NCBI GenBank assembly: GCA_017451485.1 | Contig: JAFTOG010000050.1 | Coordinates: 1,380-65,379, forward strand | Direction: 5' to 3' | Length of the DNA stretch: 64,000 nucleotides | Source: Clostridia bacterium | GTDB lineage: Bacteria; Bacillota; Clostridia; Oscillospirales; CAG-272 | Shown here: piece after piece, positions 28,000 through 43,488 of the stretch | How the letters are laid out: each line of letters starts with the position of its first letter | Numbering within the stretch: position 1 is the stretch's first letter | Translations under genes and position numbers: made by a program | The notes under the pieces: generated by a model | The model's input: the letters and a program-made list of their open reading frames with translations, nothing else | Databases searched by the model: none | What the model was told of the DNA's origin: nothing

Positions 28000-29349
28000 A
28001 TGGCAAATAACTATCTAAAACTCGGATCGCAGGGTGACTATGTTAAGCAAGTTCAAAAAAACCTTAACCTTCGAGGTGGATATGGTCTTGCCGAAGATGG
28101 TATTTTGGGAGAGAAAACCCTGTCCGCTATCAAGGACTATCAAGGTAGGCAAGGACTTGATGTTGATGGAATTGTAGGACCTGAAACATGGAGTCTGCTT
28201 GTGGGTGGTGATAATCCCTTTGATATTGAGTCAACTCAGTCTTCACCTTCCAAGCCACCTTCAAGTAATGGCACATCAAGTAACAATACTGCCAATGGAG
28301 GCTCGTACAATAAAGGATTTTCATATAAAGATTTCTCATACAAGGACTATAAAGAGAGTGAATTAGTATTACAGGCGAAAAAAATGCTTGATGCTCAGTT
28401 ATCACAGAAACCGGGTGCATATCAGTCTCAATGGCAAGGACAATTTGATGAGGTTATGAAACAAATTCTGAATCGTGAGGATTTCTCTTACGATTTCAAC
28501 GCTGATGCACTCTATCAACAGTACAAGGATCAGTATATAAAACAGGGCAAAATGGCTATGCAGGACACAATGGGGCAGGCGGTGGCTATGACAGGCGGCT
28601 ACGGAAACTCCTATGCACAGAGTGTAGGTCAGCAGGTATACAATGCACATCTTGAAAATCTCAATGATGTTATCCCCGAACTTTATCAGATGGCTCTCGA
28701 TAAATACAATATGGAGGGAGACGAACTCTATAATCAGTATGCTATGCTCGGAGACCGTGAAAACCTCGACTATAGCAGATACAGAGACTCTGTTTCCGAT
28801 TGGTTGACCGAAAGAGATTACCTTGCAGGTCGATATGACAGCGAGAGGGACTATGACTATAGCAAGTATGTAAATGACCGTGACTTTGCTTACGGGCAGT
28901 ATGGTGATAACAAAGCCTATGCATATCAAGACTACAGAGATAATATTGCAGATCAGCAGTGGCAGGCACAGTTCGACGAGTCGGTAAGACAGTATAACGA
29001 GCAGATGGCTTTCCAAGAGAAGCAGTACAATGACAGCAAGGCTTCAAGTGGTGGCGGTAGTTCATCAGGAGGCTCAAGTGGAGGCTCTTCGGGAGGCTCG
29101 GGTAGTGGTACTACAGGTAGCGGAAATGGTAACAGCGGAGGTGGATATAAGGCTGTTGATTCCCAAGCAACCAAAAATTTCAAAGCAAGCATTCGCACAC
29201 AAAATGAATTCTATGGCAGATCATCAGCCGAGAAAGAAAAATACAAGACTTATGATGCCTATATTGAAGGCAAACTCGATGAGTGGATGCAACAAGGCAA
29301 GCTGACCGAGGACGAAGTAGCAACACTAATAGCATATTACGGTCTCTAA
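28000..29349 (+). CDS. virion protein with an N-terminal peptidoglycan-binding (PG_binding_1) domain
   Basis: LKLGSQGDYVKQVQKNLN...LAEDGILGEKTLSAIKDYQGRQGLDVDGIVGPETWSLL, then Y/D/Q-rich repeats and a Gly/Ser tract. I recognise no catalytic domain. Confidence 0.65.
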   Translation: MANNYLKLGSQGDYVKQVQKNLNLRGGYGLAEDGILGEKTLSAIKDYQGRQGLDVDGIVGPETWSLLVGGDNPFDIESTQSSPSKPPSSNGTSSNNTANGGSYNKGFSYKDFSYKDYKESELVLQAKKMLDAQLSQKPGAYQSQWQGQFDEVMKQILNREDFSYDFNADALYQQYKDQYIKQGKMAMQDTMGQAVAMTGGYGNSYAQSVGQQVYNAHLENLNDVIPELYQMALDKYNMEGDELYNQYAMLGDRENLDYSRYRDSVSDWLTERDYLAGRYDSERDYDYSKYVNDRDFAYGQYGDNKAYAYQDYRDNIADQQWQAQFDESVRQYNEQMAFQEKQYNDSKASSGGGSSSGGSSGGSSGGSGSGTTGSGNGNSGGGYKAVDSQATKNFKASIRTQNEFYGRSSAEKEKYKTYDAYIEGKLDEWMQQGKLTEDEVATLIAYYGL

Positions 29350-29364
29350 AAGGAGGATAACATA

Positions 29365-32300
29365 ATGGCAAGTGTAGCCGAAATTAAAAAGCGACTTAAA
29401 GAGCAAGGCATTACAGGAGAAGTAGGACAGGCAAGCAGACACTATAACAGGAATAGCAATACTTCAAGCGAAAAGAAGAGTAGCGGTTATGTAGGTAGCA
29501 GTCAATACCAAAAGATAAAAGAAAAAGTAAAAAAAGGCGGTATTTCTTTTGATGAGCTTGGTGTAGACCAAGACTACATCAATTCCTACATTAACGATAC
29601 AAATACCTTCTTAAGTACAGCACAGGATGATATTAATGGTGTTGGGTGGGGGAATGCATCATCCACATATGAATCAAAGAATAACACATATATGGACCTC
29701 CACAGAAAGTCGAGTAATATCCGTACTTGGCTGAATGCAAACAAGAGTAACCTTGATGAAGAAACATACAATAACCTTATAGATTCTTTGGAAAAAGCTC
29801 AAAGCAGCTTGTCTTCTGTAAATAAAGCTTTTGAAGAGACTAAAGCCTTTTACTCTCAGTTTGAAACCGAGAATGACTACAATAATTATGTTCAATATGG
29901 GGAATTGAGCCGATATGATGTAAACGCAGGTCAACAGGAACTTGATATTCTTAATGGTCTCGCAAATGAAGTAGATGATTACAACAAAAAAGCCATTTCT
30001 TACGGTTATCTCGCTATCACTCCCGAAGAAAAAAAGAGAATGGAGGAGATAGATAAGGTTCTCAAAGAAAAGGGATATGAAGACGGTGCAGATGGTCTAA
30101 AGGGAGTTATATCAGAGAAATCGGCTTATCATAACCGAGCTAAGCAGATACAGGATGGTATAGCACTCTCCTCTGCAATTAACAATCCCGATTTCGAACA
30201 TTATTCTCAGGCAGGAGCAAATGTAAGTAATCCGTCTTGGGAAGACCACAAAGCTCCTGTAAACATCTTCGGATGGACTCCAATGGGAGAGGGCGAGGAA
30301 ATTGGGAATATGGTAACATTCGCTGAGGCTAATAAAGACACTGTTAATACAGATGCAGTATTAAGTTGGTCGTTGGCAAAAGGTATTGACCCGGAATCTA
30401 CATCTTATCAGTTATCGTTAATTAATAGGTATATGAAAGATGACGAAAAGGCTATATATAACTATTATATCGGTAAGGGTGACAAGGAAAGTGCAGATGC
30501 ATATATGTCATATATGATAGATGTCCTTGTGCAGAGAGAAGCAGGAGAATATGCGAATAAATTTGATGATACATATATGGAATGGGTAGTCTCAGGCACC
30601 GCAGGAGTTCATAATTTTGCATCGGGTATGTCAAACTTCTTTAATGGACTTACTCGTCAAGAAATCGACCCTAAATCGTCCCTTGCGTATTCACACGAAC
30701 TAATGAATAGCAATAACGAAGGAATATGGAAGATAACAAATGACCTTACATTTACTACTACCAATATGTTACCTTCTATACTGTTAAGCTTTGTTCCTGT
30801 AGCCGGTCCTGTACTTGGTACAACATCTATGGGAATATCAGCGGCAGGTAATGGCTATGCAGAAATGAAAAGACTTGGATATAGCGATGACCAAGCAAAA
30901 GCATACGGAACTCTCGTGGGATTATCAGAAGCAGGTCTTCAGACCCTTCTCGGTGGTATCAGTAAGCTTGGAGGCAAGATATCGGGCAAGGCTGTGGGCA
31001 ACTTAGTAAGCAAATTTGACAATGCTATTGCAAGAACTGCCATTAAGATTGGTGGCAATATGGTTGCAGAGGGAGCTGAAGAGGGTATTCAAACAGTGCT
31101 TGAGCCTGCATTTAAGGCTCTTGTTACAGGCGAGGACTACGAAGCTCCTGAGTGGGAAGAAGTCTTTTATTCATCACTCCTCGGTATGTTGTCAGGAGGT
31201 GTGTTTGAAGGAGGTCCTACTGTTGTAGATACTGCTGTTCAATCTCATCAGACAAGCAAGCAATACGGAAATTTCGCATCAGACATCGTAACAGAATTAA
31301 TTGAGCTTGACCCTAATAATTCACTCGCACAGAAAATGAAGGCAAGGCTCGACAGTGGTAAGAAAGTATCGGGATATCAATTAAACCGTCTTATAGATGC
31401 GAATGAGAGTGCTATGTACAAGCAGGATGTCTCTAAGATTAAATCTGCTACAGAGTCAAGACTTGCACAGCTTGGAGAACAGGGTGATGTAAGCAGACTT
31501 GCAGAAGCCATTGCGAAACATATTTCGGGCGAGGAACTTACACGATCCGAAATAAATATTATCAAAAACAGTAAATTCGGTCAGAGAGTTATCAACGAGC
31601 TTACCCCTTCTAATATTAAGTCAGGAGAATACTCAAGTGCTTGGGCAGAAGTAATCGGTACGGATAGGATAAATTCCGAGGAATACAGCAGGCTAATTGC
31701 AGACTTGGATGATGTACAAAATGAAGATTTTGACACAAAGACGGTTGATAATGCCACTGTGAAGACACAGAATGTTAAATCAGCCACAGAAATAATTTCC
31801 GAGACCGAGAATACACCTGTAGAAGAAAGTGCTGAAAATGGCGGTTTACAGGCTTCTAAAACTGCTATAGAAAATGTATCAGAGGAAGAAAAAAGCACAG
31901 TAACACTTGCAGAGGCTTCCCGAAAGTACGGAGCACAGGCACAGGCTATGATACATACTTATATCGAGGGACAGGATGCATACGAATACGACTCGGCTTA
32001 CAAGGTTGCATTTGATATGGGTAAAAGCGGAGTTTCCCTCTCCTATGCTTTAGAGAGTGAGGCTACTTCTTACCTATCGGAGAATCAAAGAAAACTCGCC
32101 TATGAAGCAGGAAAAGCGGCAGCGGATACATTAGCACAAAAGCGTGAAGCGGCGAACAAGAAAGCAGTTAATGGTAAGACAGGACGTAGAAAAGGTACTG
32201 TTAAGGGAGAGGGCGTAACTATTTCCGACCTTAAAAAGAGCTTCAATGATACTCAGAACAGGGCATATAAGATACTTTCCACTATTGCTGAGGTAACAGG

Positions 32301-35300
32301 TATTGATATTGTGCTGTATAAATCTGAGGTGAATGCAGACGGTAAGTTTGAAGGTGCTCAGGGTAGATTCAAATGGTCTGACGATAAAATCTACATTGAC
32401 ATAAATGCAGGTCTAAAGTCAGAAAACAGCGTGAATAATCTTGCAAAATACGCTATGCTTCGCAGTTTTTCCCACGAATTTACACATTTTATTGAAAAAT
32501 GGAATCCAATTTATTATAATGAGTTTAGAAAAGTAGTGTTTGACACACTTACAGATCGTGGCGAAAACGTACACAAGCTGATTATTGAAAAAATGGAGAA
32601 GATGGGTCTCGACTCCGAAGCCGAAGTAGAGGAAAAAAGAAGAAAGTACTATGACAGGGCAAGCCGTGAGGTTGTTGCTGAGGCTATGACCGATATTCTT
32701 CCTGATTCTCACTTCGTGGAAACTCTTGCAACAAAGCATAAGAATATCTTTGAAAAGTTACTTGATATGTTGAAGGAATTTCTTGCTGATATCAAGGCAT
32801 ATTTCAACACTATCACACATAACCCTTCAAGAGAGGCAAATACACTCAAGGAGCAGGTCGGAGAGACTGTGCATTATGTGGAAAACATTGTGAAGCTATT
32901 TGACAATGTTGCAGTAGAGGCTGTGGAAAACTATCAGATGACTGTTGCCATTGATGAAGTTGCAGAAAAACCTGCAAAGATTATCAACACAGTGACAAAA
33001 TCTGCTGAGAAAAGTGCAGATTCCAATAAATCATTGTATGAGAAATACAACGAAATAAAGGAAAGCTATCCCGATAATATCATTCTTTATAGGGTAGGAG
33101 ATTTCTTTGAGGTCCTTGGAGAAGATGCGAAAACTGTAGCAGATATACTTGACGTAACTTTGACAGGAAGAAACGATCCTAAACACGGACGTATTGATAT
33201 GTGCGGATTTCCTTATCATATCATTGAAAAGTATGTTGATAAGCTCCGCAAGAGCCACGATGTGGTGCTTGTAGATGTTGATGCAAAGGGAGAAGTGAAG
33301 GTTTATCCTATGGCTTCTATAAAAAATACTAACGGAGGTATTACAAATGTCCAAGAACGAGGCGAACAAAAAGCCGACAACACACGAGGAAGTAATTCAG
33401 CAGTTGAAGGAACACAAGAAACTGCTGGAGACAGATCCCGAGTACAGGAAACAGTACGAGGAAAGGAAGAAAAGTTTAGAGAAGTTCAACCTCTTCAACG
33501 ACAGCATAGAGGACTAAATGATAATCAATGGCTTTTAGACTCAAATAATTATATTGTTCCTGCACAAGACTCTGATTTGCACAAGGCACAGAAAACTCTT
33601 ACCGAAGATTACGGCATTGAATGTCATATCGTTAATAAATCTGCGTGGAAGAGAAATGCTAAGGCAACAACTTATTATGGAAAAGTCTACATTAGTGAAG
33701 ATATAGACGAACACAATCTTCGTGCTGTTCCTTTTCACGAAGCAACACACGCTATAAAACAGCGTGGCTTTAAGCCGTATTTGGATTTCATTGAGCGTAC
33801 TCCTGAAATGATAAATATGTCATCCCAAGAAGCACGAGATTTGATGGATGTTGTTTTGGAACACCTTGGATATAATAGTCTTGATATGGATGAACAGCAG
33901 AGAATTCGTTTTTATGATGAATTAAATGCATCTGTTTATGGTTTGACAGTTAGCGGAATTATTTTTGATAATGCTGAAATAGAATGGATTACAGATGCTT
34001 TTAACGACTTCACTGCTTATGCAAACGAGTTTACGGACATACACAATCAATTCAAAGCAAACAATAAACAGGAGGTAAAACCTAATGTCGAAAATGTTGA
34101 TAACAGAGACACAGTACAACAGCCTAACACCAATAGGCAGGGAGATACACAAGTATTGGAAGGACTTCAAACCCAAGATGTACAAGGAGATGTACAAAGA
34201 GGGGACACTGTGGGAGACACTGTCGAGCGAGGACAAGAGGTTGGACGAGATGATGCTGTCTCTGTTAACGGAGCAGGGACTCGCAGAGGACCAAGCGAGG
34301 GAGATAGTCAGAGCGGAGATATACGACGAAATGATGAGCTAAGTCCCGAAGCTGCTGAAAAACTCCACGAGGAAGTAACGGTACAGATTTCACAGCAGTC
34401 AACAGAAAAGCCCAAGGGCAGAAACTTTGTAATCGGTGATACTCTTGACCTTCCGAATGGAGAAAAGGCAAGATATAAGGCTAATATCGAAGCCATAAAG
34501 CTCGTAAAAACGCTTGAATCCGAGGGCAGATATGCAACAGAGCAGGAGCAGGCTATTCTCTCAAAATACGTAGGTTGGGGCGGTCTTGCTAATGCCTTTG
34601 ACGAAAGAAAGGCAGATTGGAGCAAGGAATTTAAGGAGCTTAAAGAACTTCTTACCAAGGAAGAGTACGAACTTGCAAGAGGCTCTACGCTTAATGCTCA
34701 CTATACAGAGATTTCCGTTATCAAGGCTATGTATGAGGGTCTTAATAAGCTCGGCTTTAACGGTGGGCGTATGTTAGAGCCTTCTTCGGGTGTTGGTAAC
34801 TTTGTCGGGGCTATGCCTTCTGATATGAGTGCAAAGGTAAAGAGTTGGACTATGGTAGAGCTTGACGGTATCACAGGACTGATCGCAAAATACCTCTATC
34901 CCAATGCCGATGTAAGAATACAAGGTTTTGAAAAAGCAAATATCCCCAATAACTTTATGGATGTAATTATCAGTAATGTTCCTTTTGGTAACTATCCCAT
35001 TACCGACAAGGCATATCCTAAGAAGGTAACGAGTGCTATTCATAACTATTTCTTTGCAAAGTCTCTTGATAAAGTCCGCCCGGGTGGAATCGTGATGTTT
35101 ATCACATCCTCATACACTATGAATAGTAAGGACGAGACCGTAAGAAGATACATTATGCAGAGAGCAGACCTTCTCGGAGCTATCAGACTTCCCGACACAG
35201 CCTTTAAGGGTAATGCGGGAACTGAGGTTGTTACAGATATTCTCATCCTTAAAAAGAGACCTGCAAATACAGCCTATACAGGTGAGGAATTCCTTGAAGC

Positions 35301-38300
35301 CCCTTACAAATATATAAACGGCTACAACGGAGCATATATCAACAGTTATTTCAATACTCATCCCGAAATGGTACTTGGTACTGCTTCTATGGATGGCAGT
35401 ATGTACCGTGGAGCTTCGCTGACATATAAAGCTCTTGAGGGTAAGGGAAGCCTTGCAGACCAAATCCGGGAAGCCTTTAGCCACATTAAAGGTAAAATGG
35501 ATTATCCTGCACGGTTGAGTCCCGAAAAGACCAATTTTGCAGTAGAGAGAGCAGGTAAGAATACCAAACAGGACGGCTACGTAGCAAAGAACGGAAAAAT
35601 ATATCAGAATAAAGACGGAGAACTTGTAGAGCAGACTGTTACTCCCAAGGTTGCAGAACGAATCAAGGGAATGCTTGAAATTCGTGATGCGGCCAAAGCA
35701 CTTACGAATGCTCAGCAACAGGGACTCAAGGATACCGAAATAAAGAAGGCAAGAGCAAATCTTAATAAGCTTTATGATGCTTTCGTAAAGAAAAACGGTT
35801 TCCTCAATGCTCCTGCAAATAGAAGTGCATTTAACGGAGATCCGGACAGATATTCTGTATTCGCTCTTGAAAATTGGGATAACGATAAGAAAACAGCAAC
35901 TAAGTCGGATATATTCTCCAAGAATACAATAGTTCCAAATCGTACTGTTAATTCTGCGAAGAACGTAGCAGAAGGACTTATTGTATCTGTAAACCAAACA
36001 GGCGGTGTAGATGTTTCTCTTATCGCAAGGCTGACAGGCAAGACCGAAGCCGATGTAACAAGAGAACTGCTTGACTCAAGACAGGTTTTCAAAAACAGAA
36101 ACGGTGTGCTTGAGACCGCAGAGACTTATCTTTCGGGTAATGTAAGAGCTAAGCTCCGTGATGCAGAGGCTCTTGTACCTATGGATAGCGACTATCAGAA
36201 GAACATTGAAGCACTTAAGGCAGTAATGCCCGAGGATGTTTCTTATCAAGATATTTTTGTCAACCCGGGTACACCTTGGATTCCTTCAAGTGTATATTCA
36301 GACTTTGCCGCATATATGCTTGGTGGAAGAAATACCGAATACAGACAGGATATAGATGTTACAAGAAATCCCGATACAGGTAATTTTACGGTAGAGCTTA
36401 AGAGTTCTTACTTAAAGTATAATGCCTCAAATACTCAGAAGTGGGGTACTCCTCGCCGTTCATTCATAGACTTGTTTGATGCTATGCTTAACTCTAAGAG
36501 CGTAGTAGTTAAGGACAAGCTTGACGATGGCTCGTTTGTAATAAACAAAGATGCAACTGCAGCCGCTAATGAGAAGATAGAGAATATCACAAAGGAATTT
36601 CAAGAGTGGCTATGGAAAGATGAAGCTCGCAGGACGGAGCTTGCTAAACTCTACAATGAGACATTTAACTCTATTGTAACTCCTAAGTATAACGGAGATA
36701 ATCTTACCGTGAACGGTGCAAATGCTATGAAGCCTTTGAGACCTCATCAGAGGAATGCTGTACAGCGAGTTATTTCTTCAGGCGGTAATACGCTTCTTGC
36801 ACATAAGGTTGGTGCAGGTAAGACCTACGAAATGGCGGCGGCAGCTATGAAGCTCAAGGAACTTGGACTTGTTAAAAAGCCTTTGTTCGCTGTTCCTAAG
36901 TCTCTTGTGGCTCAATGGGGTACAGAATTTATAGACTTCTTCCCAACTGCAAAATTGCTTGTAGCAGAAGCTACCGACTTTAGCACTGCTAACCGTAAGG
37001 TATTTATGAATCGTATTGCCAACGGAGATTATGATGCGGTTATCGTTTCATATGAGCAGTTTGAAAAGCTCCCTGTTTCTGATGATTTCACAAGAGAACT
37101 TTATCAGGAGCAGATAAATAGCGTTATTGCGGCTATCGAGGAAGCCAAAGCGGAGAAAGGAGCTAAGGCTCTTTCCGTTAAGGACCTTGAAAAGAAGCGT
37201 AAATCCTTGCAGGCGAAGATAGACAAACTGACCGACAAGGCAAAGGACGAGGGTAATATAGACTTTGAGGAATTGGGTGTAGACTCTCTCTTTATAGATG
37301 AGGCACATAACTTCAAGAATCTGTTCTATACTACCTCTATGACTAATGTATCAGGTCTTGGAAATAAGGACGGCTCAAAGAGAGCGTTTGACCTTTATAC
37401 AAAGGTACGCTATCTCCAAAAGCTGAATGGCGGTAAGGGAATTGTATTCGCTACGGCTACACCTGTTATGAACTCTATGTCAGAAATGTACATAATGCAG
37501 AAATATCTGCAACCCGACCTTCTTGAACAGCTTGGACTTAATACCTTCGATGCGTGGGCGAAGCAGTTCGGAGAGGTTGTCAACGGTGTAGAAATAAAAC
37601 CGAGTGGACAAGGCTACCGTGTAAAGCAAAGTTTCTCAAGATTCAAAAATATGAGTGAATTGCAACTATTATTCCGCAACTTTGCAGATGTTCTGACCGA
37701 CATCCCCGGACTAAAGATTCCGAAGATGAAGGGTGGAGCAGTAAATGTAGTAGTATGTGAGCCGGGACAGTTCCAACAGGATTATATGAAGGAGCTTGAA
37801 AAGAGAGCCGACAATATAAAGAATGTTGACCCTTCGGTTGATAATATGTTGAAAATCACTTCTGACGGTAGAAAAATATCCTATACTCAGCGTATGATAG
37901 ACCCCACTCTCCCTTATGAGGAAGGATGTAAAATATATCGTTGTGCTGGAAATGTAGTAAAAGCCTACAAAGAAAGCAAGGATATTAAGGGTACACAGCT
38001 TATATTCTGTGATATGGCAACACCAAAAGGCAAGAGTAAGACAGAGACTTCTACCGAAACAGACGATGCTTCAATGGATATGGAGAGTGCAAAGCTCTAT
38101 GATGATATTAAGGCTCGTCTTATACAGGAGGGCATACCTGCAAAAGAAATAGCTTTTATCCACGAAGCAGACACCGACCAAAAGAAAAAGAAGCTTTTTG
38201 CCGATGTAAACGAAGGTAAGGTAAGAGTATTGATAGGCTCTACAGGTAAAATGGGTGTAGGTATGAACGCACAAAAGCGTGTTGTTGCTATACATCACCT

Positions 38301-41300
38301 TGATGCACCTTGGAGACCGGGAGATGTTGAACAAAGAAACGGTAGAGCTTTCAGACAGGGTAATATCAATGAAGAAGTAGAGTGCTTTACATATGTTACC
38401 GAGGGAAGCTTTGACGCACGTCTTTGGGATATTCTTGAGAGAAAGCAGAACTTTATAAATCAAGTAATGAACGGCGAGAGCGTTGGACGTGAGACCGAGG
38501 ACACAGGAGAGGTTACACTTTCTGCCGCCGAGGTTAAGGCTCTTGCATCAGGCAGTCCTCTTATTATGGAGCAGGTACAGCTTGACACCGATATAAAGAA
38601 GCTTGAGTCTCTGTATAGGGCACACCTTTCCGCAGTCAGAGCCGCAAAGGAAAGGCTTGAAAAGGACAAGGGCAATACTGAGCTTCTTGAAAGACTTATC
38701 GAATTGGGTAAATCCGATATACAGTCTACAAAGGACACATACTCCGAGGGTAAATTCTCAATTACCGTTGGTAAGCAGAAGTTTACAGAAAAGAAGGATG
38801 CAGGCGTAGCTCTTATGGCAGAGGCAACAGCTAAAGCCAACACCACCGATTATACCTCTATAGGAAGTTTCGCAGGCTTTGATGTGCGTGTGATAAAAAC
38901 TGCCGAGGGTATTAAGGGTATTATCTCAGGTAAGCAAGGCTATCCTTTCAACACATATCCTAACAATACCACATTTATGATAAATCATATGATTTCGGTT
39001 GTAGAAGGTATAACCGAGAAAGTGAAGATGTGGGAAAGCTCCCTTGCGGAAACAAGGAAGGATATGGCTGAACAGGAGAAGCTTATAAATGCTCCTTTCT
39101 CAAAGCAGGCAGAGCTTGACGAGAAGCGTAAGCGTTACACCGAGGTTATGGAGATACTGAATCCTAAAGAGGAGCAGTCCCTTGACTCCGTGGCTGAGGA
39201 TACAGTACAGGAACAGAGCAGAGCATACTTGGAAGATGAACTTGACGATTTCGATATCAACAGTTATCCAAAAGTCAAGATGAGTGCCACCGAGTATAAT
39301 AAACTTGTATCCGAGGCAATGACTTGGAATGCCAACAAGACTAATAGAATATTGCATCATAGCCTTAATGGATACACTTATGTATATACCATTGATGAAT
39401 CTTATAACATAACAGTTTATAAGAAGTATAAATCAGTAAACATTCACGAAAGGAAGGCAAAAATATATGATATCCGTAGCGGAAAGCAAGTTAATAGAAA
39501 CGATGGTGAGAATCGGGATGGAAGACGAAATGATACATTTAGTCTGCTCGAATCTGACCGAGGAACAGATGATAGAAGCGGAGGACTTTTTGACTCATCG
39601 ACATCAGAAAAATGGTCAAGTGACGGAAGAAGAGGTACTGAAACTCCTATTGATAATGACGAAAGAGGAACACAATACCAACAGCGTTCAGAAGGACTAA
39701 CGGACTATGAAGTGCTTGAATTGGCTTCAAATGAAATCAAGGTAAGCGACCTTACACAGGCTGAAAATGATGCCTTGACTATCTTCCAAGACAGACTTGC
39801 AAGGTTGAAAACCCTTCAGGACGAGAGGACCGAGCAGGGCAGACTGTATAAAGAACAACAGTTTGGAGCAAAGGTCAACAGAGCTGAAGCTGAAAAGACA
39901 CTTAACCGTATGCACGTTCTTGACGATCAGATAAAGAAAGCTACAGCAGATGTACTGACTGTAGAGGAAAAAGAGGTATTAAAGCGAGTGCTTAAAAAGG
40001 CTCGTAAGGTTGTAGAGGTACAGGAGAGAAAGCACGGACAAGAAATTCTTAACCGTTGGAGAGACCGTAGAAATAATGCGGCCGCTATCAAGAAGTACCG
40101 TGACCGCCTCCGTGGAGACGTGGAAGAGCTTACAACTTGGATTACAAGTCCGAATAACAAGGATATTACAAAGCACGTTCCTGATGTACTTAAGAATTCA
40201 GTTATTCCTTTCCTCTCAAGCATTAACTTTATGAGTAAGCGTTCTCTTAAAGGTGGAGATGCAACTGTATCCGATAAAGCATTTATAAAGAACTTAGATG
40301 CATTAAAATCTGCACTTAAGATAAATATGGATGTTTACGGTATGTACTCAGGTTATAACGATTTGCCTCCTGACTTTATGGAGAATTTAGAGAACTTCAT
40401 AAAATCTGCACAGGCACTTGTTGATAAGAGTGCAGGCGAGTTTATCATAAATCAGATGACAAGCTCAGAACTGAAGGAATTATCACAGGTAGTGCGTACT
40501 CTTAAGAAGTACATAACTCAATTTAACCGATTCCACAACAATGCTATGTATCAGCATGTTTACGAGGCAGGAGACAATTCAATGGAATTCCTTAAAGAAC
40601 TCGGAAATGCAGGAGAGCATACAGGAGGATTATCCAACTTTGTATTTTGGCAACAGATAAGACCTGCCTACGCATTTGAGAGATTTGGTAAAGGTGGCGA
40701 GGCTATCTATGACGGACTCAGACAAGGACAGGCGAAGCTTGCCTTCAATACAAAGGAAATTCAGAGATTTACGGAAAAAGCATATACAAGCAAAGAGGTC
40801 AAAGCGTGGGAAAATGAAATTAAGGAATTTAACCTCGGCAGAGATATTGTGAGAATTCCTGTTTCATACCTTATGTCTTTCTATGAGTTGTCAAAAGACC
40901 CCCAAGCAAAAGAGCATATTGTTGGCGAGGGTATCAGAGTAGCAACATATACACACAAGGGCAAAAAGATTTCCGATGTTGGACACATTCTCACAGTTGG
41001 AGAGTTTAACCAGATAGTTAGCTCGCTTACAGACAGACAGAGAGAAGTTGCTGATAGCTTGCAGAAATTTATGGCAGAGCAGGGTGGTAAATGGGGTAAC
41101 TATGTTTCAGTTGCACGTTTCGGAGAGGAACTTTTTACAAATCCAAATTACTTCCCGATTAATTCTGACGGTAGACATTTGTCTTCTACAGTAGAAGAAC
41201 ATCCCTCTGCGGCTTCACTATATGCACTGCTTAATATGAGCTTCACAAAGTCGAGAAAAGAGGGTGCAAATAACCGTATTATCCTTTACAGCATATTTGA

Positions 41301-43488
41301 TGTATTCGCTAATCATATGGCAAGTATGGCTCAGTACAACGCTATGGCACTTCCTATACTTGATGCTCTTAAATGGTTTAACTATCAGCAGGTACTTATA
41401 GATGATGAGGGCAACAAGATAGTTCTCGGTAATTTAAGAGATCAGTTGTCAAGAGTTTACGGCGTACCCGATGAAACAAAACCGGGAAGCGGTAAGCAAG
41501 GATATGCAGAGACCTTTATTGTTAATATCATAAAGGCATTCAATGGTACTGCGGCACAGGGCACTCCATATGACACATTAGGTCTTAAGTCACTACGCAG
41601 ATACAATATGGCACAGGTTGCATATAACCTTCGTGTTGTAATTCAGCAGCCTTTAGCAATTACACGAGCAGGTATGCTTATTAGCTATAAGTCCATTATC
41701 AGAGGAATGAAGCTAAGACCTTCTGCAATCAAGAAGAATATCGAGGAAATGCAGAAGTATAGCGGTATTGCGGCTTGGAAATCTCTCGGCTTCTATGATG
41801 TAAATATCTCAAGAGGACTTACCCACCTTATCAAGCACGATTCAACAGTGTGGGATAAGATAGGTGATATAGGAATGTGGGGAGCTGAAAAGGCTGATAC
41901 TCTGACTTGGGCGGCTATTTGGAGTGCTTGTAAGGAAGAAGTTATAGCAAAGCAGAAGTTAACTCCCGAAAGTGACGGCTTCTATGAGGCTGTAACCAAG
42001 CTCTTTGAGGATGTTATCTATAAGACACAGGTTGTCGATAGTGTACTTACCAAAAACGAGTTTATGAGGGACAAGGGAACATTTGCAAGACTTGTAGGAT
42101 CGTTTATGTCAGAGCCTACAACAAATGCAAGTATGCTGATAGATGCTATTGATAAATATCACCTTGACATTAAGAGAGGTATGTCAAAGCGTGAGGCTTG
42201 GCAGAAGAATGGCAAGATGATAGGTCGCAGACTTTATGTATACGGCGTTGGTGCTGTTCTTCTTGCAGCAGTACAAGCCGTGGCAGATGCCTTCAGAGAT
42301 GATGACGAGTATGAGGAGTGGTACGAGAAATGGCTCGAGGCATTCGGAGGCAATGTTATTGACGAGCTTATGCCCTTTAATAAGCTTCCTATTATGTCTG
42401 ATTTTTATGACCTTGGAAAAGAGATAGCTTCAATCTTGGGAGCTGACACTTACGGTAATCCTCCGCAGTCTGTATTTATGCAGTGGTATGACAGCCTTAT
42501 AAAGGGTACAGAGATTATACACGATAAGATTACAGGCGAGGACACAAATTATACTTGGTGGGGCGGCATTTTCAAATTGGTACAGGCAGCTTCAGGTATG
42601 ACAGGACTGCCTATGGCATCAGCTACAAGAGAGTTTGTTACATTTTGGAATAATGTTATAGTAGCTATGGTACCGAGTTGGAAAATAGAAAGCTATGAGC
42701 CAAGCGAACTTGCACAGATAAGATATGCATACGAGGACGGATATCTGACTTATGAGGAGGCTGTAGAGCTTCTTATCGAGCAAGGTCTTGTCGATAACGA
42801 AAATGAAGCATACTTTATCATTGAAGGATGGGAAGCAGGCGAAGGATATTCAAGGTACGATAAGATTTACGATGCAGTTCTCAAGGGCGAAAGTATTGAC
42901 GAGGCAATGTCGGAATTGACTGCTCACGGATATACCGAAAAGGAAGTGCTGAGACAAGTCAAGAGTAAGATCGGAGAATGGTATCAGAATGGTGAAATCT
43001 CAAAGGCACAGGCTATAAATATGCTCAAAAAGTACAGTGATATGGATGATGACGAGATAACCGCTACAGTTAATAAATGGAGTAGTTATGTTGTTACAGG
43101 CATTAAGTATGATGATATAGACGATGAGTTTATGGAGGGCAACATCACATCTTCAAGAGCCATTGAAATGTATGTACGCTACGGTAGTATGACAAGAGAA
43201 AAAGCCACTGAAAAGGTTACGGTATTGGAATTTGTTAAGGAACATCCCGGAACAGAGGGTATTACTTACTCTGCTGTTAACGGCTACAATACCTATTGTG
43301 AGCCTTATGGTGTACCAGCTGAAATATATTACGAGGCGTGGGTATATAAGAATACGCTTTCGGGCACAGTCAAAGAGCCGATGATGGATTATATCAATTC
43401 CCTTAACCTGAGCACAAGACAAAAAGATAGTTTGTACTTCGCTTTTGGTTGGGCAGAAAGTAAGCTTTACGAAGCACCGTGGCATTAA
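29365..43488 (+). CDS. giant 4707-aa polyvalent virion/ejection-type protein
   Basis: A single uninterrupted ORF with SD AAAGGAGG. Carries the modules listed below as sub-features. Confidence 0.8.
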   Translation: MASVAEIKKRLKEQGITGEVGQASRHYNRNSNTSSEKKSSGYVGSSQYQKIKEKVKKGGISFDELGVDQDYINSYINDTNTFLSTAQDDINGVGWGNASSTYESKNNTYMDLHRKSSNIRTWLNANKSNLDEETYNNLIDSLEKAQSSLSSVNKAFEETKAFYSQFETENDYNNYVQYGELSRYDVNAGQQELDILNGLANEVDDYNKKAISYGYLAITPEEKKRMEEIDKVLKEKGYEDGADGLKGVISEKSAYHNRAKQIQDGIALSSAINNPDFEHYSQAGANVSNPSWEDHKAPVNIFGWTPMGEGEEIGNMVTFAEANKDTVNTDAVLSWSLAKGIDPESTSYQLSLINRYMKDDEKAIYNYYIGKGDKESADAYMSYMIDVLVQREAGEYANKFDDTYMEWVVSGTAGVHNFASGMSNFFNGLTRQEIDPKSSLAYSHELMNSNNEGIWKITNDLTFTTTNMLPSILLSFVPVAGPVLGTTSMGISAAGNGYAEMKRLGYSDDQAKAYGTLVGLSEAGLQTLLGGISKLGGKISGKAVGNLVSKFDNAIARTAIKIGGNMVAEGAEEGIQTVLEPAFKALVTGEDYEAPEWEEVFYSSLLGMLSGGVFEGGPTVVDTAVQSHQTSKQYGNFASDIVTELIELDPNNSLAQKMKARLDSGKKVSGYQLNRLIDANESAMYKQDVSKIKSATESRLAQLGEQGDVSRLAEAIAKHISGEELTRSEINIIKNSKFGQRVINELTPSNIKSGEYSSAWAEVIGTDRINSEEYSRLIADLDDVQNEDFDTKTVDNATVKTQNVKSATEIISETENTPVEESAENGGLQASKTAIENVSEEEKSTVTLAEASRKYGAQAQAMIHTYIEGQDAYEYDSAYKVAFDMGKSGVSLSYALESEATSYLSENQRKLAYEAGKAAADTLAQKREAANKKAVNGKTGRRKGTVKGEGVTISDLKKSFNDTQNRAYKILSTIAEVTGIDIVLYKSEVNADGKFEGAQGRFKWSDDKIYIDINAGLKSENSVNNLAKYAMLRSFSHEFTHFIEKWNPIYYNEFRKVVFDTLTDRGENVHKLIIEKMEKMGLDSEAEVEEKRRKYYDRASREVVAEAMTDILPDSHFVETLATKHKNIFEKLLDMLKEFLADIKAYFNTITHNPSREANTLKEQVGETVHYVENIVKLFDNVAVEAVENYQMTVAIDEVAEKPAKIINTVTKSAEKSADSNKSLYEKYNEIKESYPDNIILYRVGDFFEVLGEDAKTVADILDVTLTGRNDPKHGRIDMCGFPYHIIEKYVDKLRKSHDVVLVDVDAKGEVKVYPMASIKNTNGGITNVQERGEQKADNTRGSNSAVEGTQETAGDRSRVQETVRGKEEKFREVQPLQRQHRGLNDNQWLLDSNNYIVPAQDSDLHKAQKTLTEDYGIECHIVNKSAWKRNAKATTYYGKVYISEDIDEHNLRAVPFHEATHAIKQRGFKPYLDFIERTPEMINMSSQEARDLMDVVLEHLGYNSLDMDEQQRIRFYDELNASVYGLTVSGIIFDNAEIEWITDAFNDFTAYANEFTDIHNQFKANNKQEVKPNVENVDNRDTVQQPNTNRQGDTQVLEGLQTQDVQGDVQRGDTVGDTVERGQEVGRDDAVSVNGAGTRRGPSEGDSQSGDIRRNDELSPEAAEKLHEEVTVQISQQSTEKPKGRNFVIGDTLDLPNGEKARYKANIEAIKLVKTLESEGRYATEQEQAILSKYVGWGGLANAFDERKADWSKEFKELKELLTKEEYELARGSTLNAHYTEISVIKAMYEGLNKLGFNGGRMLEPSSGVGNFVGAMPSDMSAKVKSWTMVELDGITGLIAKYLYPNADVRIQGFEKANIPNNFMDVIISNVPFGNYPITDKAYPKKVTSAIHNYFFAKSLDKVRPGGIVMFITSSYTMNSKDETVRRYIMQRADLLGAIRLPDTAFKGNAGTEVVTDILILKKRPANTAYTGEEFLEAPYKYINGYNGAYINSYFNTHPEMVLGTASMDGSMYRGASLTYKALEGKGSLADQIREAFSHIKGKMDYPARLSPEKTNFAVERAGKNTKQDGYVAKNGKIYQNKDGELVEQTVTPKVAERIKGMLEIRDAAKALTNAQQQGLKDTEIKKARANLNKLYDAFVKKNGFLNAPANRSAFNGDPDRYSVFALENWDNDKKTATKSDIFSKNTIVPNRTVNSAKNVAEGLIVSVNQTGGVDVSLIARLTGKTEADVTRELLDSRQVFKNRNGVLETAETYLSGNVRAKLRDAEALVPMDSDYQKNIEALKAVMPEDVSYQDIFVNPGTPWIPSSVYSDFAAYMLGGRNTEYRQDIDVTRNPDTGNFTVELKSSYLKYNASNTQKWGTPRRSFIDLFDAMLNSKSVVVKDKLDDGSFVINKDATAAANEKIENITKEFQEWLWKDEARRTELAKLYNETFNSIVTPKYNGDNLTVNGANAMKPLRPHQRNAVQRVISSGGNTLLAHKVGAGKTYEMAAAAMKLKELGLVKKPLFAVPKSLVAQWGTEFIDFFPTAKLLVAEATDFSTANRKVFMNRIANGDYDAVIVSYEQFEKLPVSDDFTRELYQEQINSVIAAIEEAKAEKGAKALSVKDLEKKRKSLQAKIDKLTDKAKDEGNIDFEELGVDSLFIDEAHNFKNLFYTTSMTNVSGLGNKDGSKRAFDLYTKVRYLQKLNGGKGIVFATATPVMNSMSEMYIMQKYLQPDLLEQLGLNTFDAWAKQFGEVVNGVEIKPSGQGYRVKQSFSRFKNMSELQLLFRNFADVLTDIPGLKIPKMKGGAVNVVVCEPGQFQQDYMKELEKRADNIKNVDPSVDNMLKITSDGRKISYTQRMIDPTLPYEEGCKIYRCAGNVVKAYKESKDIKGTQLIFCDMATPKGKSKTETSTETDDASMDMESAKLYDDIKARLIQEGIPAKEIAFIHEADTDQKKKKLFADVNEGKVRVLIGSTGKMGVGMNAQKRVVAIHHLDAPWRPGDVEQRNGRAFRQGNINEEVECFTYVTEGSFDARLWDILERKQNFINQVMNGESVGRETEDTGEVTLSAAEVKALASGSPLIMEQVQLDTDIKKLESLYRAHLSAVRAAKERLEKDKGNTELLERLIELGKSDIQSTKDTYSEGKFSITVGKQKFTEKKDAGVALMAEATAKANTTDYTSIGSFAGFDVRVIKTAEGIKGIISGKQGYPFNTYPNNTTFMINHMISVVEGITEKVKMWESSLAETRKDMAEQEKLINAPFSKQAELDEKRKRYTEVMEILNPKEEQSLDSVAEDTVQEQSRAYLEDELDDFDINSYPKVKMSATEYNKLVSEAMTWNANKTNRILHHSLNGYTYVYTIDESYNITVYKKYKSVNIHERKAKIYDIRSGKQVNRNDGENRDGRRNDTFSLLESDRGTDDRSGGLFDSSTSEKWSSDGRRGTETPIDNDERGTQYQQRSEGLTDYEVLELASNEIKVSDLTQAENDALTIFQDRLARLKTLQDERTEQGRLYKEQQFGAKVNRAEAEKTLNRMHVLDDQIKKATADVLTVEEKEVLKRVLKKARKVVEVQERKHGQEILNRWRDRRNNAAAIKKYRDRLRGDVEELTTWITSPNNKDITKHVPDVLKNSVIPFLSSINFMSKRSLKGGDATVSDKAFIKNLDALKSALKINMDVYGMYSGYNDLPPDFMENLENFIKSAQALVDKSAGEFIINQMTSSELKELSQVVRTLKKYITQFNRFHNNAMYQHVYEAGDNSMEFLKELGNAGEHTGGLSNFVFWQQIRPAYAFERFGKGGEAIYDGLRQGQAKLAFNTKEIQRFTEKAYTSKEVKAWENEIKEFNLGRDIVRIPVSYLMSFYELSKDPQAKEHIVGEGIRVATYTHKGKKISDVGHILTVGEFNQIVSSLTDRQREVADSLQKFMAEQGGKWGNYVSVARFGEELFTNPNYFPINSDGRHLSSTVEEHPSAASLYALLNMSFTKSRKEGANNRIILYSIFDVFANHMASMAQYNAMALPILDALKWFNYQQVLIDDEGNKIVLGNLRDQLSRVYGVPDETKPGSGKQGYAETFIVNIIKAFNGTAAQGTPYDTLGLKSLRRYNMAQVAYNLRVVIQQPLAITRAGMLISYKSIIRGMKLRPSAIKKNIEEMQKYSGIAAWKSLGFYDVNISRGLTHLIKHDSTVWDKIGDIGMWGAEKADTLTWAAIWSACKEEVIAKQKLTPESDGFYEAVTKLFEDVIYKTQVVDSVLTKNEFMRDKGTFARLVGSFMSEPTTNASMLIDAIDKYHLDIKRGMSKREAWQKNGKMIGRRLYVYGVGAVLLAAVQAVADAFRDDDEYEEWYEKWLEAFGGNVIDELMPFNKLPIMSDFYDLGKEIASILGADTYGNPPQSVFMQWYDSLIKGTEIIHDKITGEDTNYTWWGGIFKLVQAASGMTGLPMASATREFVTFWNNVIVAMVPSWKIESYEPSELAQIRYAYEDGYLTYEEAVELLIEQGLVDNENEAYFIIEGWEAGEGYSRYDKIYDAVLKGESIDEAMSELTAHGYTEKEVLRQVKSKIGEWYQNGEISKAQAINMLKKYSDMDDDEITATVNKWSSYVVTGIKYDDIDDEFMEGNITSSRAIEMYVRYGSMTREKATEKVTVLEFVKEHPGTEGITYSAVNGYNTYCEPYGVPAEIYYEAWVYKNTLSGTVKEPMMDYINSLNLSTRQKDSLYFAFGWAESKLYEAPWH
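30745..31215 (+). other. Gly/Ala-rich hydrophobic segment of the giant protein (membrane-interacting candidate)
   Basis: MLPSILLSFVPVAGPVLGTTSMGISAAGNG...LLGGISKLGG...IKIGGNMVAEG...LLGMLSGGVF. Confidence 0.5.
32473..32487 (+). other. HExxH motif 1 (HEFTH, aa 1037-1041) in a zincin-like module
   Basis: LRSFSHEFTHFIEKWNP. Confidence 0.55.
33031..33312 (+). other. MutS domain-I-like module (aa ~1223-1316)
   Basis: YPDNIILYRVGDFFEVLGEDAKTVADILDVTLTGR...DMCGFPYHIIEKYVDKLRKSHDVVLVD parallels the E. coli MutS N-terminus ILLFYRMGDFYELFYDDAK..LDISLTKR...PMAGIPYH..ENYLAKLV..G..VAI. Confidence 0.75.
33347..33517 (+). CDS. nested +1-frame ORF n1 (56 aa) with its own SD inside the giant ORF
   Basis: GGAGGT at 33334-33339 lies 7 nt before the ATG. 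Product: MSKNEANKKPTTHEEVIQQLKEHKKLLETDPEYRKQYEERKKSLEKFNLFNDSIED. Confidence 0.35.
   Translation: MSKNEANKKPTTHEEVIQQLKEHKKLLETDPEYRKQYEERKKSLEKFNLFNDSIED
33736..33750 (+). other. HExxH motif 2 (HEATH, aa 1458-1462) in a second zincin-like module
   Basis: LRAVPFHEATHAIKQRGF. Confidence 0.55.
34085..34342 (+). CDS. nested +1-frame ORF n2 (85 aa), TnpV-like, with its own SD inside the giant ORF
   Basis: AGGAGGT at 34070-34076 lies 8 nt before the ATG, with an in-frame TAA at 34076-34078. The product carries a PIG..H.Y.K..P..Y....G.L...L ... AREIVRAEIY signature. Confidence 0.5.
   Translation: MSKMLITETQYNSLTPIGREIHKYWKDFKPKMYKEMYKEGTLWETLSSEDKRLDEMMLSLLTEQGLAEDQAREIVRAEIYDEMMS
34560..35260 (+). 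other. N6-adenine DNA methyltransferase module
   Basis: YVGWGG, motif I MLEPSSGVGNF, and motif IV VIISNVPFGNY. Confidence 0.8.
36736..38470 (+). other. SNF2/DEAD-like helicase module
   Basis: LRPHQRNAV, Walker A HKVGAGKTYE, DEAH box LFIDEAHNF (37297-37308), and motif VI QRNGRAFRQGN. Confidence 0.85.
39467..39700 (+). CDS. nested +1-frame ORF n3 (77 aa) with an SD-like AAAGGAAGG inside the giant ORF
   Basis: MISVAESKLIETMVRIGMEDEMIHLVCSNLTEEQMIEAEDFLTHRHQKNGQVTEEEVLKLLLIMTKEE... The main frame here is D/R/G-rich filler. Confidence 0.4.
   Translation: MISVAESKLIETMVRIGMEDEMIHLVCSNLTEEQMIEAEDFLTHRHQKNGQVTEEEVLKLLLIMTKEEHNTNSVQKD

Follow-up and report, generated by a model that had tools for sequence, protein, structure and literature searches.

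A 77-codon gene nested in a giant phage gene

The stretch of Clostridia bacterium DNA analysed here, 64,000 nucleotides (nt) long and called the window below, carries a giant open reading frame (ORF) of 4707 codons (29365-43488) that encodes a polyvalent-type protein. Inside this ORF, in its +1 frame, lies a complete ORF of 77 codons (39467-39700), which runs from an ATG at 39467 to a TAA at 39698-39700. All genes, ORFs and signals located by window coordinates in this text are on the forward (+) strand, and the frame of the giant ORF is called the main frame. We consider, with a probability of about 85%, that 39467-39700 is a real gene, coding for a protein and lying entirely inside the giant polyvalent-protein gene, because of its homologues, its ratio of non-synonymous to synonymous substitution rates (dN/dS), its conserved Shine-Dalgarno sequence (SD) and ATG, and the predicted fold of its product.

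The nested ORF has translation-initiation signals of its own. The SD AAAGGAAGG (39449-39457) is separated from the ATG by a 9-nt spacer and reads ..H-E-R-K-A.. in the main frame. Its GAAAGG motif is kept in relatives, including a second nested copy (contig L035, described below) where it lies ~13 nt 5' of the nested ATG; the phage's own genes have AGGAGG-type SDs. The ORF spans residues 3368-3445 of the giant protein, at the border between the helicase part and the C-terminal ~1250 amino acids (aa). Over this stretch (39469-39696, residues 3369-3444), the main frame is a D/R/G/S-rich linker that is the out-of-frame reading of the small gene. The SD, start, stop and both translations given by the original prediction, which was made from the letters of the window, were found again exactly when the sequence was re-read, and its placing of the ORF at the border of the helicase and C-terminal modules agrees with the Pfam helicase, which ends at residue 2999.

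The 77-aa product is acidic (isoelectric point of 4.75). It had been thought to resemble a folded helical mini-protein, and AlphaFold2, run on the family alignment, returned a confident four-helix model (predicted local distance difference test score, pLDDT, of 89; predicted template modelling score of 0.75). The predicted helices cover residues 4-15, 20-29, 32-49 and 54-70, and residues 71-77 are predicted to be disordered.

Free-standing and nested homologues

The window peptide was searched against 5.8 billion clustered proteins, and an exhaustive HMMER search of 1.8 billion representatives was carried out. The former yielded three matches. P0001 (99% identity) belongs to close relatives of the window phage. 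P0002 (77% identity) is encoded by a free-standing gene of a bacterial chromosome (L008), between metA and the cotJ operon, with an intrinsic terminator directly 3' of it. P0003 (81% identity) is encoded by a free-standing gene of another phage (L009), directly 5' of the terminase large subunit gene. The HMMER search added six proteins of 57-87 aa (P0026-P0031), one of which, P0026 (59-61% identity to the window peptide), is a second nested copy, on contig L035. The 77-aa protein has significant full-length similarity to other members of this family, with E-values of 1e-26 to 9e-18 against P0002, P0003 and P0026, and the homologues start with the same MIS... residues. Hence, the homology and structure searches proposed along with the original prediction provided free-standing and nested homologues as well as a confident four-helix model.

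DNA homology between the window and L008 or L009 extends from the ATG to about codon 68, and the flanks are unrelated. In these free-standing genes, the equivalent of the giant frame is interrupted by three stops (L008) and two stops (L009). Since free-standing homologues exist for the nested frame but not for the giant-frame segment, the small gene is likely to be the ancestral frame and the D/R/G linker its overprint. The opposite possibility, i.e. that the nested frame is a younger gene that arose de novo by overprinting, was discarded given the free-standing genes of L008 and L009 and the absence of the host-frame segment from close relatives of the giant gene.

Selection in the two reading frames

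The differences between the window and its free-standing homologues follow the nested frame. They fall at nested codon positions 1, 2 and 3 in the ratio 12/6/33 for L008 and 13/6/25 for L009. Counted as changed codons (synonymous/non-synonymous), they amount to 26/15 in the nested frame vs 3/35 in the main frame for L008, and to 22/13 vs 1/32 for L009, with a nested-frame dN/dS of 0.079 for the latter comparison.

The second nested copy allows the same analysis between two overlaps. The main frame of the L035 contig (579 nt) reads ..IFRKYTATNIHER...GEQHQQRIEPLTDREVLAMAASEL.. and has no stop; its flanks (..KY..NIHER / Q.QQR..LTDREVL) and its C-terminal module are those of the window. Identity between the window and L035 is 61% in the nested frame vs 39% in the main frame. 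Changed codons are 21/28 in the nested frame vs 5/43 in the main frame (Fisher p = 4.5e-4), which corresponds to a nested dN/dS of 0.135, with a saturated dS (2.3), and to an apparent main-frame dN/dS of ~2. Purifying selection therefore acts on the nested frame at the protein level (dN/dS of 0.08-0.14).

The giant frame is also maintained across the overlap; it is free of stops in both the window and L035, and likewise at 12 loci of a second subfamily presented below. Given the nested peptide, 6.3 stops would be expected in the main frame, and the probability of finding it open by chance is ~0.0005, so that its openness also appears to be selected. On these comparisons, the region is truly dual-coding, the nested frame being constrained as a protein and the giant frame only to stay open.

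The proposed analysis of frame-specific conservation thus supports the nested gene (dN/dS of 0.08-0.14 vs an apparent ~2), and the description of the main frame as filler is borne out by its poorly conserved residues (39% vs 61% identity between window and L035). Three observations had been named as speaking against the nested ORF, and the opposite of each was found: the peptide has homologues and a predicted fold, the alternative frame is intact in the relatives carrying the segment (L005-L007 and L035), and the main-frame residues are poorly conserved.

A cassette at a module-swap junction

The nested gene lies largely in a lineage-specific insert (39238-39672), located between the main-frame motifs VQEQSRAYLED (39205-39237) and QYQQRSEG (39673-39696). 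This insert consists of a ~70-aa domain, called W hereafter (ELDDFDINSYPK...VYKKYKSVNIHER), which ends with ...NIHER, and of the linker over the nested gene. The 3' end of the nested ORF falls within the right junction motif QYQQRSEG-LTDYEVLELASNE (39673-39735), which is conserved in all relatives: QYQQR..LTDREVL is found in L001-L003 and in P0004-P0025. In L002, L003 and P0004 (79% identity), VQEQSR.YL is joined directly to QYQQR..LTDREVL without any insert, and L001 carries an unrelated insert of ~330 aa at the same junction. Depending on the relative, the slot VQEQSR.YL / QYQQR..LTD.EVL holds nothing, the ~330-aa domain, HExxH domains or others. Since relatives carry other modules or none, 39238-39672 can be viewed as a lineage-specific cassette at a module-swap hot spot. 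In metagenome assemblies, sequencing depth rises 3-5 fold at 39679-39724, i.e. in the right junction motif, and this spike is due to sequence common to several elements. The junction motifs may serve in recombination, in cleavage by a protease, or in both.

A second nested subfamily in other giant genes

At the junction just described, more distant relatives of the giant gene (P0007, P0009, P0014, P0016 and P0020) have another small domain (W.NGS..G..K.F.R.G...YYEKT..GCVEI...QYNER) and then an R/D/G/S linker. Over these linkers, the +1 frame is open for 74-86 codons and encodes helical, mutually conserved peptides (...LLILM..PKE..LE.LTAIET.EEL.LFLDKLSEKNYEMTPEEVYQ...). In the four loci read (L010, L011, L014 and L015), GAAAGG(A) lies ~9 nt 5' of the nested ATG; the conserved main-frame '(Y)NER' codons of the second-subfamily loci are this GAAAGG SD. 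Here again, substitutions follow the nested frame, for instance 24/22 vs 5/41 (Fisher p = 3e-5). A scan of IMG/VR found the second-subfamily peptide nested, with the same frame relation, in ORFs of more than 2000 codons at seven loci (L017-L023). The second subfamily (71-80 aa) is therefore nested in the +1 frame in at least 12 loci (L010, L011, L013, L014, L015 and L017-L023). The deletions in L024 and L025 took the small domain along with the initial two-thirds of the nested ORF. The giant genes of L017 and L020, which hold the second subfamily, also encode a PBECR5 domain.

The second subfamily was modelled with the same four-helix topology (pLDDT 92), and hhalign aligned the two subfamilies over 53 columns with an E-value of 0.017. 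The two nested subfamilies are therefore probably, although not provably, homologous. A joint profile retrieved 366 database clusters of 70-94 aa, none of which is named or has a Pfam domain. The peptide of the window subfamily was not found in scans of IMG/VR or of Joint Genome Institute (JGI) metagenome contigs. Searches of INPHARED (curated phages) and PLSDB (plasmids), either with the DNA of the region or in protein mode with the peptides of both subfamilies, returned nothing.

Proteins of 70-86 aa called in bacterial chromosomes were considered as free-standing genes of the second subfamily and rejected, since blastn showed them to lie in fragments of 580-840 bp that are 94-95% identical to giant genes. 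Orphan fragments of polyvalent genes, made of the small domain and the nested ORF and 94-95% identical to giant genes from IMG/VR, were found in the chromosomes of L026-L031 (about 7700-8400 in L026) and L032-L034 (7667-8504 in L032). One of them lies inside a skin-like element that interrupts cotJC (Mn-catalase) and carries a large serine recombinase; the other lies in a birA-greA spacer. Furthermore, the 3.5-kb contig L011 carries two second-subfamily ORFs, one nested (1419-1631) and one called separately (2520-2732), the latter being a 71-aa gene called after the main frame breaks. This contig may be a chimera or may carry tandem modules.

Two natural alleles, fused and split

The window phage exists in two forms that differ by one base. 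The T at 39357 is absent in L005, L006 and L007, three contigs from different samples, and in sequencing run X3, so that the upstream part of the giant ORF shifts to the +1 frame. In this deletion allele, the upstream gene (3348 aa) ends at a TAA (39410-39412) located 54 nt (39413-39466) before the nested ATG, and the C-terminal gene (1258 aa) is called from an in-frame GTG (39712-39714; position 6246 of L005 corresponds to 39712 of the window), 11 nt past the nested stop. Gene calls of L005 therefore give 3348 aa, 77 aa and 1258 aa, with the small gene free-standing. Runs X1 and X2 carry the exact window allele; in X3, the deletion is accompanied by linked single nucleotide polymorphisms (SNPs).

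All eight differences between the window and L005 (seven substitutions and one indel in 12,235 aligned bases) are grouped in a patch of 344 bp (39292-39635), and the other 11.9 kb are identical. The patch is probably a localised recombination tract that spans the last part of domain W as well as the nested gene. Hypermutation of the diversity-generating retroelement (DGR) type was rejected as its origin since the changes are not adenine-specific. Four of the substitutions lie in the nested ORF; three of them are silent there, and all four change the main-frame residue.

The deletion cuts the upstream domain, which then ends in 19 junk residues. Since the split truncates this domain, the split form is likely to be derived. 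Its spread speaks for viability, which translational coupling would probably provide. The fused and split alleles, which differ naturally by one base, provide a ready-made experiment on whether the fusion matters.

Points against the nested gene and alternative explanations

Several points weigh against the reading of 39467-39700 as a gene. The length and openness of the nested ORF are within chance: when the giant gene was shuffled among synonymous codons, protein and codon usage being kept, 84% of the shuffles held at least one +1 ATG ORF of at least 77 codons and, with the local main-frame peptide fixed, the +1 frame was stop-free in 20% of the resamplings. The translation of the nested gene is predicted from the sequence, and the L035 contig is just 579 nt long. 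Neither subfamily belongs to a Pfam or NCBIfam family (the 77-aa product has no Pfam match at E ≤ 0.01), and PHROGs gave weak matches to families of unknown function and nothing else. The models of the two subfamilies have no significant fold match (best PDB E-values of 0.7-1.9), and the best BFVD match of the window peptide model is an uncharacterised phage protein of 64 aa (template modelling scores of 0.65/0.77). The homology between the two subfamilies is just suggestive, and the chromosomal members of the second subfamily that were checked are, judging by their identity to giant genes, relics and not independent genes. Since many 'free-standing' second-subfamily calls are such orphan fragments, the independent free-standing evidence, among the contexts examined, rests on L008 and L009. 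Lastly, hhalign of domain W against the W.NGS...YYEKT..GCVEI..QYNER domain, which precedes the other subfamily, aligned just 10 residues with an E-value of 0.057, too little to establish homology, and the tie of the small gene to the domain upstream of it rests on adjacency and co-deletion.

As length is not significant, the reality of the nested ORF has to be settled by comparison with other sequences. This bears directly on the possibility that 39467-39700 is a chance open frame, made of a purine-rich, T-poor linker with a fortuitous ATG and an A/G-rich stretch. The nested stretch is indeed purine-rich and T-poor (20% T), and, besides the shuffles, 15 of the 21 sites of the giant gene that combine an SD-like sequence and an ATG fall in the +1 frame, which is a compositional bias. 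However, free-standing and nested homologues and a nested dN/dS of 0.08-0.14 already refute this explanation, which a confident fold prediction and a conserved SD and ATG make still harder to hold; we regard it as extremely improbable. Very unlikely, too, is that a real gene was recently swallowed by the giant ORF and persists as an untranslated relic, intact through its recency alone, even though the insert is lineage-specific and the window-peptide subfamily was found nested in two giant genes only (those of the window lineage and of L035). These two genes share the nested context but have diverged to 61% aa identity, with a saturated dS (2.3) and a dN/dS of 0.135, and such divergence without any stop or loss of SD or ATG requires selection. 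Moreover, all 12 nested loci of the second subfamily have kept the gene intact, disruption being seen only with deletion of the module, and, between the alleles of the window lineage, three of four changes are silent in the nested frame vs none of four in the main frame.

The two alleles raise the question of whether the true form is three genes (3348, 77 and 1258 aa), the 4707-codon ORF being a mutant or an assembly artefact. Four independent assemblies (L005, L006, L007 and X3) have the 1-nt deletion, and the 77-aa ORF is called there. However, the window allele was recovered unchanged from two independent runs (X1 and X2), and the deletion allele is the one that cuts the upstream domain and leaves the 19 junk residues. 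Furthermore, the main frame runs without a break through the junction of L001-L003, as it does over the nested ORF of L035 and of the 12 second-subfamily loci, and its openness over the small gene has the chance probability of ~0.0005 given above. We therefore hold the three-gene form to be very unlikely as the true one. Finally, a programmed +1 frameshift at GCA-AAA-A (39457-39463) could add a helical domain to the C-terminus of a truncated giant protein, a run of five A being present within the 27 nt between the upstream +1-frame stop (39437-39439) and the ATG. This A-run is missing from the other nested copies, whose conserved features are the SD and the ATG, and the homologues, which begin with the same MIS... 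residues, are proteins in their own right; this leaves the frameshift next to no likelihood.

Origin, expression and possible function

The arrangement could have arisen if the giant ORF came to read out of frame through a pre-existing small gene. The out-of-frame reading would then join the helicase part to the C-terminal part, the linker being the overprint. No promoter-like site above chance was found near the nested ORF; since none precedes it, the small protein would be made by internal initiation, at its own SD and ATG, on the late mRNA of the giant gene. In the deletion allele, the same DNA would serve as three cistrons linked by translational coupling (3348 aa / 77 aa / 1258 aa).

As to function, it is a weak and doubtful guess that the small protein is a partner of the polyprotein in the producing cell, where it would help assembly or packaging as a chaperone, act as a packaging adaptor, or inhibit the adjacent domain. 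This guess stems from the gain and loss of the small protein together with the domain just upstream, and from the need to keep polyvalent proteins competent for packaging.

The giant gene and its surroundings

Pfam domains of the giant protein are MutS_I, an Eco57I-like methyltransferase (MTase), SNF2-rel_dom/ResIII and Helicase_C. The last of them (SNF2/Helicase_C) ends at residue 2999, and the C-terminal ~1250 aa are unannotated. Two HExxH motifs are visible in the translation of the giant ORF, and LPD1 (PF18796) is present in one main-frame relative of the giant protein. According to its domain content, a giant polypeptide joining unrelated conflict and DNA-processing domains, this product can be classed with the polyvalent proteins defined by Iyer et al. 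2017 (PMC5512222).

The neighbours of the giant ORF encode terminase, portal, major head, internal virion and tail proteins, hence the assignment of the window to a phage. The giant gene lies 3' of the internal-virion, tail and lysin-domain genes and 5' of a tail-fibre-like gene. Directly 5' of it, the N-terminal ~70 aa encoded by the gene at 28000-29349 match endolysin families. This endolysin-like N-terminus is probably a cell-wall-binding or lytic domain, and the product may be a virion-associated lysin.

Other ORFs nested in the giant gene

The original prediction mentioned two other nested ORFs, which are those at 34085 and 42236, and pointed out that all three share the +1 frame, which is correct. 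One of the two appears to be real and the other does not. The ORF at 34085-34342 (85 aa) lies over a D/R/G/Q linker of the giant gene, has an AGGAGG SD 8 nt upstream and is identical in the window and L005. Its product matches the Pfam family TnpV (PF14198) with an E-value of 2.5e-5 (24.6 bits, just below the gathering score of 27), and it is probably a second real nested gene. TnpV is a small protein of Firmicutes transposons. The 77-aa product was also considered as a TnpV and rejected, since it has no match to the Pfam model; it is likewise a small helical mobile-element protein but belongs to an unnamed family. By contrast with 34085-34342, the ORF at 42236-42427 (63 codons) is probably a chance ORF: it has no SD and encodes a hydrophobic Cys/Leu-rich peptide without any family match, and the main frame over it looks structured. 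A further +1 ORF (33347-33517, 56 aa), with a GGAGG SD, lies over a third linker and has a weak match to DUF7863 (E = 0.005).

Since a second linker overlies a TnpV-like +1 ORF, the phenomenon may be general. It is possible, though we propose it tentatively and would sooner bet against it, that giant polyvalent genes are assembled by gene fusion and cassette swap across small genes that survive as +1 nested genes, that many 'low-complexity linkers' are the out-of-frame readings of such genes, and that the nested proteins (four-helix, TnpV-like) are dedicated partners (chaperone, packaging adaptor, inhibitor) of the domains with which they travel. If so, phages and conjugative elements would have a hidden layer of genes, invisible to gene callers. 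Because these programs forbid long overlaps on the same strand, an intact giant ORF keeps such nested genes out of the annotation, and they surface only in broken or fragmentary contigs. The case of the 77-codon gene offers a concrete route, open to testing, for the growth of multi-kilobase polyvalent genes and the exchange of their modules, and it points to small proteins that are likely to act alongside the anti-defence polyproteins which gut Clostridia phages would deliver with their virions.

Comparison with known systems

Complete genes nested in larger ones are known from other phages. Rz1 lies within Rz, in the +1 frame (spanins of phage lambda), and genes B and E of phiX174 lie within A and D, respectively. 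In these pairs, both products come from one late transcript, the nested gene is taken as the newcomer, and both proteins are equally essential. The 77-codon gene resembles them as a complete gene with its own ribosome-binding site inside a larger phage gene of the same strand. It differs from them in that the nested gene would be the older one, the host frame being a poorly conserved linker of a 4707-aa multidomain protein, and in that the 77-aa protein has no membrane or lysis features.

The host ORF shares with polyvalent proteins such as P1 DarB (Iyer, Burroughs, Anand, de Souza and Aravind 2017, PMC5512222) a giant multidomain architecture with an MTase, an SNF2 helicase and HExxH peptidase-like motifs, as well as a location among virion genes and modules that are shuffled between relatives. 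The nested small genes are an added layer: a search for terms in the text of that article returned no 'linker', no 'overlapping' and nothing on genes within polyvalent genes.

Overprinted frames tend to be disordered (PMC8227390, PMC3494269), and genes remodelled out of frame have been described in a study of the E. coli pangenome (PMC8788219). As in these cases, one DNA is read in two frames, the younger frame is of low complexity, probably disordered and of odd composition, and the ancestral frame is recognisable by its wider distribution. However, the overprint is here not a new gene but an inter-domain linker that fuses two large parts of a giant ORF, and the same arrangement is met again, as a portable cassette, in many giant genes. 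Overprinting would thus have run opposite to its usual direction, the structured and conserved small gene being old and the giant ORF using the other frame as a flexible linker. Hence, what is new in comparison with the known systems is the direction of the overprint (old small gene, new linker frame), its setting in polyvalent proteins and its recurrence as a cassette.

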